This document shows, piece after piece, positions 14,162 through 14,401 of a stretch of 64,000 nucleotides of DNA (positions are counted from its first letter, which is position 1; the number at the start of each line of letters is the position of its first letter). The position numbers and the translations under genes were made by a program. The notes beneath the pieces were generated by a model, which was not told the DNA's origin, did no database searches, and saw only the letters and a program-made list of their open reading frames with translations. Source of the stretch: an uncultured Clostridium sp. (GTDB taxonomy: Bacteria; Bacillota; Clostridia; TANB77; CAG-508); NCBI GenBank assembly GCA_947647595.1, contig CANSKZ010000004.1, forward strand, positions 71,541 through 135,540, given 5' to 3'.

Positions 14162-14190
14162 TTGACAGAAATGGAAATAAGTAGTATACT
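14162..14190 (+). promoter_or_regulatory. Sigma-A-type promoter (TTGACA-N17-TATACT) driving a ~70-nt transcript that ends at terminator 14237-14267
   Basis: The consensus hexamers are near-duplicates of the rpmF promoter block; no ORF lies between promoter and terminator. Confidence 0.45.
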
Positions 14191-14236
14191 ATTATTAATA
14201 ATTGAAAACAATCTTAAACAAAAAAGAAAAAATGAA

Positions 14237-14267
14237 AACAGGTAGTTGCTGCTACCTGTTTTTATTT
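14237..14267. terminator. Bidirectional rho-independent terminator (acaggtagTTGCTGctacctgt + T-run, A-run on the left)
   Basis: Perfect 8-bp GC-containing stem flanked by an A tract and a T tract; shared by the plus-strand short transcript and minus-strand small ORF A. Confidence 0.6.
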
Positions 14268-14401
14268 TATAAAAAAGACTGAATCAATTTAAGAATATAT
14301 GTAAAAATTTTAGAATGCTTTTTCTCAAATTCTATTGTAATTTCTGTTTGTTTTTTAGTCTTAGTTATTTTTTCTTTTGTTTTAAAAACAATCCTAAACA
14401 T
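14266..14401 (-). pseudogene. Small lysine-rich peptide gene, paralog A (frame broken in an A4 run; intact homologs at 27640 and 33699)
   Basis: The RBS GGAGGTGAT precedes ATG 14401..14399. It reads MFRIVFKTKEKITKTKKQTE then TGA after 25 codons. A +1 shift in GAAAAT restores ...ITIEFEKKHSKIFTYILKLIQSFL*, about 44 aa, with the same architecture as copies B and C. Confidence 0.35.

Follow-up and report, generated by a model that had tools for sequence, protein, structure and literature searches.

Why should a promoter for a short RNA without an open reading frame (ORF) point, three times over, toward a small lysine-rich peptide gene and into the terminator of that gene? This question is raised by three loci (A, B and C) in a 64-kb stretch of DNA with 30% GC (contig CANSKZ010000004.1, from an uncultured gut Clostridia lineage; the whole stretch is referred to as the window). 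Each locus of about 370 bp consists of a near-consensus promoter on the plus strand, a predicted transcript of 70-90 nt without ORF, a bidirectional terminator and a convergent gene of 41-44 codons on the minus strand. The small RNA carries a segment complementary to the start-codon region of its own convergent mRNA, a feature not seen in the first-pass annotation, which had been made from the sequence letters. We propose that each locus is a par-type, antisense-controlled small-peptide cassette, of which the peptide is probably harmful when de-repressed, and put the probability of this reading at about 0.6.

The common layout described in the first-pass annotation was found at all three loci, including the promoters, the hairpins and the minus-strand ORFs with a strong Shine-Dalgarno (SD) sequence, either GGAGG or GGGGG. 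The plus-strand promoters (TTGACA-N16/17, followed by TATACT in A, TATAAT in B and TATGAT in C) score 11-12 of 12, and each is the top site in its region. The −35 hexamer is TTGACA in all eight cassettes examined, including those of relatives, with TATAAT, TATACT or TATGAT at −10 and different spacers. A G+C-rich hairpin is located about 40-60 nt past the plus-strand promoter, with an A-run before it, a T-run after it and no credible ORF in between. Hairpins of the GGTAG...CTACC form occur just three times in the 64 kb, one per cassette, and the stop codons of the minus-strand genes are 0-11 nt from them. A composite pattern (SD, then 130-160 nt, then the hairpin) gave three matches in the window against 0.00 expected from 100 shuffles, and no match in 1.24 Mb from 80 related species (80 loci of related uncultured Clostridia, collected with S15 as the query). 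The three-locus layout is real and beyond chance.

The complementarity arises from a direct repeat in the DNA (DRa and DRa'), one copy within the small RNA and the other at the start of the peptide gene. Since the two copies are transcribed from opposite strands, the small RNA becomes complementary to its own convergent mRNA, covering positions +1/+2 to +15/+21 of the mRNA. The repeat segments of 14-19 nt are 89% identical at locus A (19 nt), 100% at locus B (14 nt, at 27575-27588 and 27745-27758, with GCAT next in both copies) and 93% at locus C (14 nt). In RNAduplex predictions within the window, the cognate pairs gave −21.2, −20.9 and −20.6 kcal/mol for A, B and C, respectively, all placed at AUG, while the non-cognate pairs gave −3.2 to −10.7 kcal/mol; over all variants, the cognate duplexes ranged from −18 to −27.5 kcal/mol and the non-cognate mostly from −3 to −15. 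After dinucleotide shuffling of each small RNA (n = 1000), the observed duplex was reached 0 (A), 0 (B) and 1 (C) times (z = −5.5, −6.4 and −3.6). The seeds are predicted to be accessible, being single-stranded in A and C and exposed in the loop of a 5' hairpin in B.

The pairing was then compared among seven distinct cassette variants, consisting of A, B and C of the window, those of relatives and a copy in a fourth genomic context; a same-species contig (L116) provided the eighth cassette examined. DRa covers AUG and the first codons, in register with AUG, in all seven. The N-terminal codons vary widely among the variants (MQKSKFSA, MRKVKFSS, MPKANSSN, MPSFRCKK, MFRIVF, MFKIIF and MFHIAK), and the small RNA is altered in parallel every time. 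Paired cells amounted to 92.6% of the alignment, against 27-47% with the partner slid by 1-3 columns; 14 of 21 pairs have changed on both sides; 36 cells are double changes, where the slid controls have 2-10; and none of 500 shuffles came up to the pairing or co-variation score of the real alignment. The alignment was anchored at the start codon and built from the repeats themselves, so that the slid controls and the direction of the mismatches are the fairer tests of co-variation. All four DNA mismatches between the repeat copies belong to the 2 of 12 possible types that give G·U, a bias that favours selection acting on the RNA over gene conversion alone as the cause.

Selection on the peptide genes showed a matching division. 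Among the B-type orthologues, the ratio of nonsynonymous to synonymous differences (pN/pS) is about 0.13-0.3 for codons 9-41, indicating purifying selection, while pN is close to pS for codons 1-8. These first codons form the RNA-binding site and thus behave more as an RNA address than as protein.

A frame break in an A4 run had been ascribed to copy A, but none is present: the ORF is intact from ATG at 14401 to TAA at 14267 (44 codons). Peptides of the same length are encoded in other assemblies (P0001, with one residue different, and P0006, diverged), and a frameshifted copy A was rejected because the ORF is both intact and conserved. For peptide B, an in-frame ATG at 27771 would lengthen the product by two residues (MD). 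Its orthologues P0002, P0003 and P0004 are 41 aa long with a single start 9 nt from the SD; the second ATG (27765) is the most likely start of peptide B, which then also has 41 aa. Cassette C contains, at 33863-33880, a second upstream SD (AAGGAGGTGAT), resembling those of A and B, together with an in-frame GTG at 33863; a start there would yield a 54-aa form, in which peptide C is preceded by MCKYVKRRFCY. The proximal SD of C (33840-33844 in the window) is weakened from GGAGG to TGAGG in the same-species contig. Peptides B and C are homologous, in agreement with the first-pass annotation (tblastn E = 2e-4, 40% identity over 30 aa); as C can be aligned to A over the N-terminal half of A and to B over the C-terminal half of C, all three peptides belong to one family.

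This family is narrowly distributed. A profile search of 5.8 billion proteins detected three clusters only, and an exhaustive HMMER search over 1.84 billion representatives detected four real clusters plus one spurious match of 3832 aa. The relatives include an A-type orthologue (L202, about 79% nucleotide identity), two B-type orthologues (L006/L007 and L009, about 84%) and a B-type copy located elsewhere, between a cobW-like gene and veg/sipL (L203-L207). Scanning metagenomes with the composite DNA pattern yielded 112 stretches, and the check covered 80 of these; the sole real cassettes among them are those of the same-species contig L116, which carries B and C at about 98% identity. The remaining metagenome matches were judged to be chance by their higher G+C content or an unrelated ORF. 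Two contigs of the Joint Genome Institute (L092:3427-3595 and L110:10425-10593) carry an unrelated Cys-rich ORF of 40 codons (MGPMDSDNYDHCWETGEYDDQDCNFCPYNEKCCGSSNDED) with a similar hairpin, and were also taken as chance. In the 80 related-Clostridia loci, no peptide was detected by tblastn, and neither the composite pattern nor the structural signature was present. Exact look-up of peptides B and C in a gene-position index gave no record and no called gene. The coordinates of all features are summarized in Table 1.

Table 1. Features of cassettes A, B and C in window coordinates. DRa and DRb, repeat copies in the small RNA; DRa' and DRb', the corresponding copies in the mRNA; UTR, untranslated region.
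Feature	Coordinates	Strand	Remarks
rpmF intrinsic terminator	14126..14151	+	TTAAGG...CCTTAA then T7; read from sequence; conserved in L001-L005, L202
Promoter of small RNA A	14162..14190	+	TTGACA-N17-TATACT; 11/12; hexamers unchanged in L202, spacer varies
Predicted small RNA A	14197..14268	+	~72 nt, ORF-less; 5' part largely single-stranded, then terminator hairpin; −22.4 kcal/mol, z = −6.4
DRa of small RNA A	14202..14220	+	TTGAAAACAATCTTAAACA; anti-start-codon segment
Bidirectional terminator of small RNA A and mRNA A	14229..14268	both	core ACAGGTAG-TTGCTG-CTACCTGT
Peptide A gene	14267..14401	-	44 codons, intact, MFRIVFKTKEKITKTKKQTEITIEFEKKHSKIFTYILKLIQSFL; SD GGAGG 14410-14414; pN/pS ~0.45 vs L202
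DRa' of mRNA A	14382..14400	-	+2 to +20 (codons 1-7); small RNA A target; both DNA mismatches give G·U
Promoter of peptide mRNA A	14496..14524	-	TTGCAA-N17-TATAAT; 10/12; 5' UTR ~90 nt
Promoter of small RNA B	27523..27550	+	TTGACA-N16-TATAAT; 12/12; hexamers invariant in L116, L006, L009, L206, spacers vary
DRb of small RNA B	27555..27566	+	ATATAAATGCAT; complementary to mRNA 5' UTR just upstream of SD; conserved in L006, L009, L206
Predicted small RNA B	27557..27640	+	~83 nt; 5' hairpin (AUGCA/UGCAU) with seed in loop, then terminator hairpin; −24.7 kcal/mol, z = −5.6
DRa of small RNA B	27575..27592	+	CGAAAATTTAGATT then GCAT; anti-start-codon segment
Bidirectional terminator of small RNA B and mRNA B	27602..27637	both	AAAAAACTGGTAGTGTGG/CCACACTACCAGTTTTTT
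Peptide B gene	27640..27765	-	41 codons, MQKSKFSAKQKKKLRKLLHSFINIIKKLLEIIKLVKDILNF; SD GGGGG 27775-27779
DRa' of mRNA B	27745..27765	-	14-bp block +8 to +21; AUGC +1 to +4; 3-nt bulge between
DRb' of mRNA B	27798..27809	-	in 5' UTR; also pairs with start-codon region inside mRNA
Promoter of peptide mRNA B	27868..27896	-	TTTACA-N17-TATAAT with TG; 11/12
Promoter of small RNA C	33568..33596	+	TTGACA-N17-TATGAT; 11/12
Predicted small RNA C	33603..33695	+	~92 nt; 5' hairpin, single-stranded seed, terminator hairpin; −28.7 kcal/mol, z = −6.3
DRa of small RNA C	33643..33656	+	GGTAATATGAAACA
Bidirectional terminator of small RNA C and mRNA C	33657..33688	both	
Peptide C gene	33699..33830	-	43 codons, MFHIAKNSKDEKVKKRKKQFVNILNLIKTITEIMKNIKTFFNF; SD GGAGG 33840-33844
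DRa' of mRNA C	33816..33829	-	+2 to +15; single DNA mismatch gives G·U
Probable promoter of peptide mRNA C	33968..33996	-	TTGCAT-N17-TATAAT; read by eye; identical in L116

The rpmF terminator is located ahead of the promoter of small RNA A, which shows that this small RNA forms a transcription unit of its own. The probable promoter of mRNA C was not called by the scan, its −35 hexamer matching the consensus at just three of six positions. The loop of hairpin C (33671-33674) is present in the same-species contig as its reverse complement (CGCC to GGCG). At loci A and B, the A-rich 3' part of the small RNA matches the lysine codons of the peptide gene in inverted orientation (82-85%; 14214-14233 / 14367-14386 and 27593-27609 / 27725-27741), so that the small RNA and mRNA are similar there, not complementary; this inverted repeat could be low-complexity chance or a trace of the origin of the cassette. 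None of the Rfam 15 families matched at the three loci, either at gathering scores or at E <= 10.

The mRNA leaders would be about 90-130 nt long, and their predicted folds contain a 5' hairpin and a stem enclosing the SD and AUG. Among four aligned B-type leaders, conservation extends to the 9-bp 5' hairpin, to CCC opposite the GGGGG of the SD and to GCAU opposite AUGC.

The peptides of 41-44 aa have a net charge of +6 to +10 and a lysine-rich N-terminus. Their maximum Kyte-Doolittle mean over 19 residues is 0.1-1.4, compared with 2.2-2.5 for Fst, PepA1, TxpA, BsrG and TisB, while the hydrophobic moment of 0.58-0.74 is within the range of melittin and LL-37. AlphaFold2 predicted a single helix, residues 4-40, with a predicted local distance difference test score of 83. 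Hydropathy, charge and hydrophobic moment thus agree with the earlier description of the peptides as basic and amphipathic rather than hydrophobic. No recognised family was noted before, and none was found in Pfam (including the Spo0E-like models, named beforehand as a possible refutation), NCBIfam, PADLOC, PHROGs, PDB or Rfam. The best E-value was 0.027 in Pfam, missing the cut-off, and no match was obtained in NCBIfam and PADLOC; the best values in PHROGs (0.012) and the PDB profile search (0.19) were not significant.

Based on these features, a mode of action can be proposed. The minus-strand promoter would produce an mRNA of about 260-310 nt, the leader of which would carry a stabilizing 5' hairpin and a stem over the SD and start codon; it would encode the peptide of 41-44 residues, predicted to form one long amphipathic alpha-helix. 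The stronger plus-strand promoter would direct synthesis of the non-coding RNA of 70-90 nt, stopping at the same terminator. The two RNAs may pair at the terminator stem-loops and at the 14-19-nt segment over AUG and the first 5-7 codons, and in the B type the second repeat upstream of the SD would provide a third pairing site. This pairing would block ribosome loading and probably trigger cleavage of the duplex, so that the peptide would be made only once the small RNA is depleted. The first eight codons or so would drift freely with the small RNA tracking them, and as a consequence each paralogue would be addressed on its own, and no cross-talk among the three cassettes is expected. Once made, the peptide most likely does harm: it could disturb the membrane from inside as a cationic amphipathic helix or helix bundle, or bind nucleic acids through its lysine-rich N-terminus. 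The sequence comparisons show the layout of the loci, the complementarity with its co-variation, the purifying selection on the peptide and the patchy spread of the cassettes; firing of both promoters, repression of translation by the pairing and toxicity of the peptide are what we infer. The start-codon complementarity and the co-variation do support the cautious proposal of the first-pass annotation, a type I toxin-antitoxin or a small protein controlled by a small RNA.

The distribution of the loci is patchy and cassette-like. The S15 protein of the source lineage has 96-98% identity to its counterparts in metagenome-assembled genomes of 'uncultured Clostridium sp.'. The two closest species in the GTDB set (L010 and L011) are syntenic with the window at 77-87% identity and are without cassettes at the orthologous sites; in L010, pnp leads straight into the promoter region of the next gene. 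In L011, a solo hairpin, CAGATAG-TAGAA-CTATCTG, is located between the rpmF terminator and spoIIIAA (L011:464-482, orthologous to window 14150-14530). Its stem is that of the cassette, altered by compensatory G>A / C>T substitutions, and no other such hairpin occurs in the 1.24 Mb of related loci; the cassette may have left it behind or may have grown from it. The homology of the window to the veg-side copy (L206) spans 27523-27881, from the −35 box of the small RNA promoter into the mRNA promoter and no further. Because the homology ends at both promoters, the unit is a promoter-to-promoter cassette, for which at least four moves or duplications must be counted.

Several observations weigh against par-type cassettes with a harmful peptide. 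The promoters and terminators are known as consensus matches only. The terminator loops read CAGCAA (A), GGCC (B) and GGCG (C) in the mRNA sense, and the YUNR U-turn motif is present in none of the three; DRb was found in the B type only. In the B-type leader alignment a compensatory change was detected at one pair only, giving little co-variation support for the 5' stem-loop, and the leader structure is thus predicted rather than shown. The upstream GTG start of peptide C might, if used, put the pairing site outside the initiation window, and gene conversion between the repeat copies could in principle mimic the co-variation. As to the peptides, no segment reaches transmembrane hydrophobicity, unlike a typical type I toxin, and the Fst signature and toxin-family models gave no match. 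It could be argued even that no RNA-RNA function exists, the loci consisting of ordinary terminators and chance AT-rich promoters, with the repeats being target-site duplications or insertion relics. Promoter-like hexamers are common in a genome of 30% GC (5-9 sites per 600 bp, compared with 4-6 in shuffles), and the cassettes do act as insertions or deletions between species. TTGACA is, however, perfect in eight of eight cassettes, the spacers of which vary, the repeat keeps the AUG register throughout, with two-sided changes at 14 of 21 positions, and the repeats are inside the homology unit, not at its ends. Relic duplications would decay independently, whereas the four mismatches are all compatible with G·U; target-site duplication was rejected by these mismatches together with the parallel changes, and the lack of any RNA-RNA function is hardly credible.

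As the main alternative, the same RNA wiring might control a non-toxic peptide with a regulatory or structural role, such as a lysine-rich nucleic-acid or ribosome binder, or an amphipathic helix at the membrane surface in sporulation or stress. The peptides look soluble, being strongly basic with one amphipathic helix and no transmembrane segment; the cassettes are located in the core genome beside genes of housekeeping and sporulation (rpmF/spoIIIAA, pnp, ecfT and veg/sipL); no relatives were found in the collections of viral contigs, plasmids and phages; and type I toxins, almost without exception, are hydrophobic peptides of the membrane, the nucleases RalR and SymE standing apart (PMC8309996). 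An ordinary regulator is, however, expected to be single-copy and genus-wide, whereas the cassettes are multi-copy, each with a fast-diverging RNA address, are present or absent between sister species, include a copy transposed promoter-to-promoter and apparently lock translation doubly, by the mRNA stem and by the antisense RNA. Such traits are hallmarks of addiction modules, and we consider a non-toxic peptide unlikely. The size of 41-44 aa, the charge and the hydrophobic moment in the range of melittin and LL-37 also fit an exported, leaderless cationic antimicrobial or bacteriocin-like peptide restrained by the antisense RNA. This is very improbable: the cassettes contain no gene for immunity, transport or modification, the neighbours are housekeeping genes, the energy-coupling factor (ECF) module upstream of locus C is of the vitamin-uptake type, no bacteriocin family was matched, and three unlinked copies with private antisense RNAs correspond to no known bacteriocin layout. 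The par-type cassette with a harmful peptide thus remains our preferred reading. Its extension, that a cationic, non-transmembrane amphipathic helix represents an unseen class of type I toxin, captured by a par-type circuit independently of Fst and with about eight codons serving as an RNA address that lets orthogonal copies coexist, is proposed tentatively, at somewhat less than even odds.

The genes flanking the loci are rpmF, pnp and ecfT/CbiQ, in agreement with the earlier description of the loci as downstream of housekeeping genes. Besides the cassettes, several features of this neighbourhood were noticed. The segment 34023-34333 beside cassette C is absent from the same-species contig, a one-gene insertion or deletion difference; it contains a promoter (TTGACA-N17-TATCAT, at 34031), an ORF of 62 codons (34094-34282, MSNYQGTTKDRYELGAIRHKGFGTGKPTDCEEEFDWPKDWPYYTYHVNENNKELIQEGPFYG) without Pfam match, and a terminator. 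At the 5' end of pnp (25330-25560), the first 45 codons or so are out of frame with the 664-codon ORF from GTG at 25515, and ecfT (32960-33300) changes frame near 33200; these frame splits point to assembly indel errors or pseudogenes. Between rpsO and pnp is an ORF of 316 codons (24166-25116) in which no Pfam domain was detected and for which 185,579 GTDB species representatives contain no relative; L010 and L011 align there just in short pieces. A tetrahydrofolate riboswitch (55 bits) is located at 30196-30295, upstream of the gene at 30364 and ahead of the ECF transporter genes, and a tRNA of 90 nt is encoded at 13671-13760, just upstream of rpmF.

If the proposed reading is true, the par-type design, in which two promoters converge on one terminator and a repeat-encoded segment masks the start codon, is a reusable chassis beyond Fst-like membrane peptides, and the range of type I toxins would be extended to a cationic amphipathic peptide without transmembrane segment. 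The seven variants represent a natural experiment, in which a coding N-terminus and an antisense RNA co-evolve and paralogous modules are kept private. The three orthogonal pairs of RNA and peptide could be put to use in Clostridia, as compact switches of translation or as markers for counter-selection. Public annotation largely misses small genes and small RNAs of this kind; by exact look-up, it has no called gene for peptides B and C.

Among the known type I systems, the peptides fall within the size range below 60 aa and lack the transmembrane helix, while the predicted antisense complementarity is specific, located at the start codon and co-varying. As in bsrG/SR4 and txpA/RatA of Bacillus subtilis (PMC3834814), the convergent RNAs overlap at their 3' ends and are encoded on a Gram-positive chromosome, and in those systems the antitoxin affects translation as well as decay (PMC3834814). 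The B. subtilis pairs have a long 3' overlap with an indirect effect on translation, whereas in the cassettes the overlap is the terminator only and a separate repeat-encoded segment would pair directly with the start codon; unlike the cassette peptides, those of B. subtilis are hydrophobic toxins of the membrane. The Clostridioides difficile modules CD2517.1-RCd8, CD2907.1-RCd9 and CD0956.2-RCd10 (PMC6563280, PMC5961336) share with the cassettes a Clostridia host, convergent overlapping genes, several paralogues per genome and a lysine-rich charged region of the peptide. In the C. difficile toxins the hydrophobic region is N-terminal and the lysine-rich one C-terminal (PMC6563280), whereas this polarity is reversed in the cassette peptides, which have no transmembrane stretch and no sequence similarity to them. 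The C. difficile copies are often located in prophages, by CRISPR arrays or on plasmids, while the cassettes are located between housekeeping genes.

The similarity extends furthest to the par loci of Enterococcus faecalis (pAD1 par and par-EF0409; fst RNA I / RNA II). In par, the convergent promoters share a bidirectional terminator, the complementary loops of which begin the interaction; the direct repeats DRa and DRb, transcribed in opposite directions, sequester the initiation region, and the mRNA has a 5' helix and a 5' stem-loop hiding the SD (PMC7472228). To judge from the sequence, the cassettes likewise have convergent promoters and one shared bidirectional terminator, oppositely transcribed direct repeats that would pair the small RNA with the translation-initiation region (DRa in all seven variants). 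For the mRNA, folding predicts a 5' hairpin and a leader structure enclosing the SD. The repeat sequences of co-resident par systems are poorly conserved, so that they do not interfere (PMC7472228), and poor conservation between paralogues was also found for the cassettes, which are chromosomal and intergenic. Unlike par, the A and C types have one repeat, at the start codon, with two repeats in the B type only, and the terminator loops are without YUNR, a motif that is missing from some members of the Fst/Ldr family as well (PMC7472228). The Fst toxins of about 30-35 aa have a hydrophobic transmembrane helix with P/D/S/TXXXG(C), a conserved Trp and an acidic or charged C-tail, whereas the cassette peptides, longer and without these features, have a lysine-rich N-terminus followed by an amphipathic helix. 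All RNA-level features of par except YUNR are found or predicted in the cassettes, and by this analogy the system, not a member of the Fst family, yet appears to work like par.

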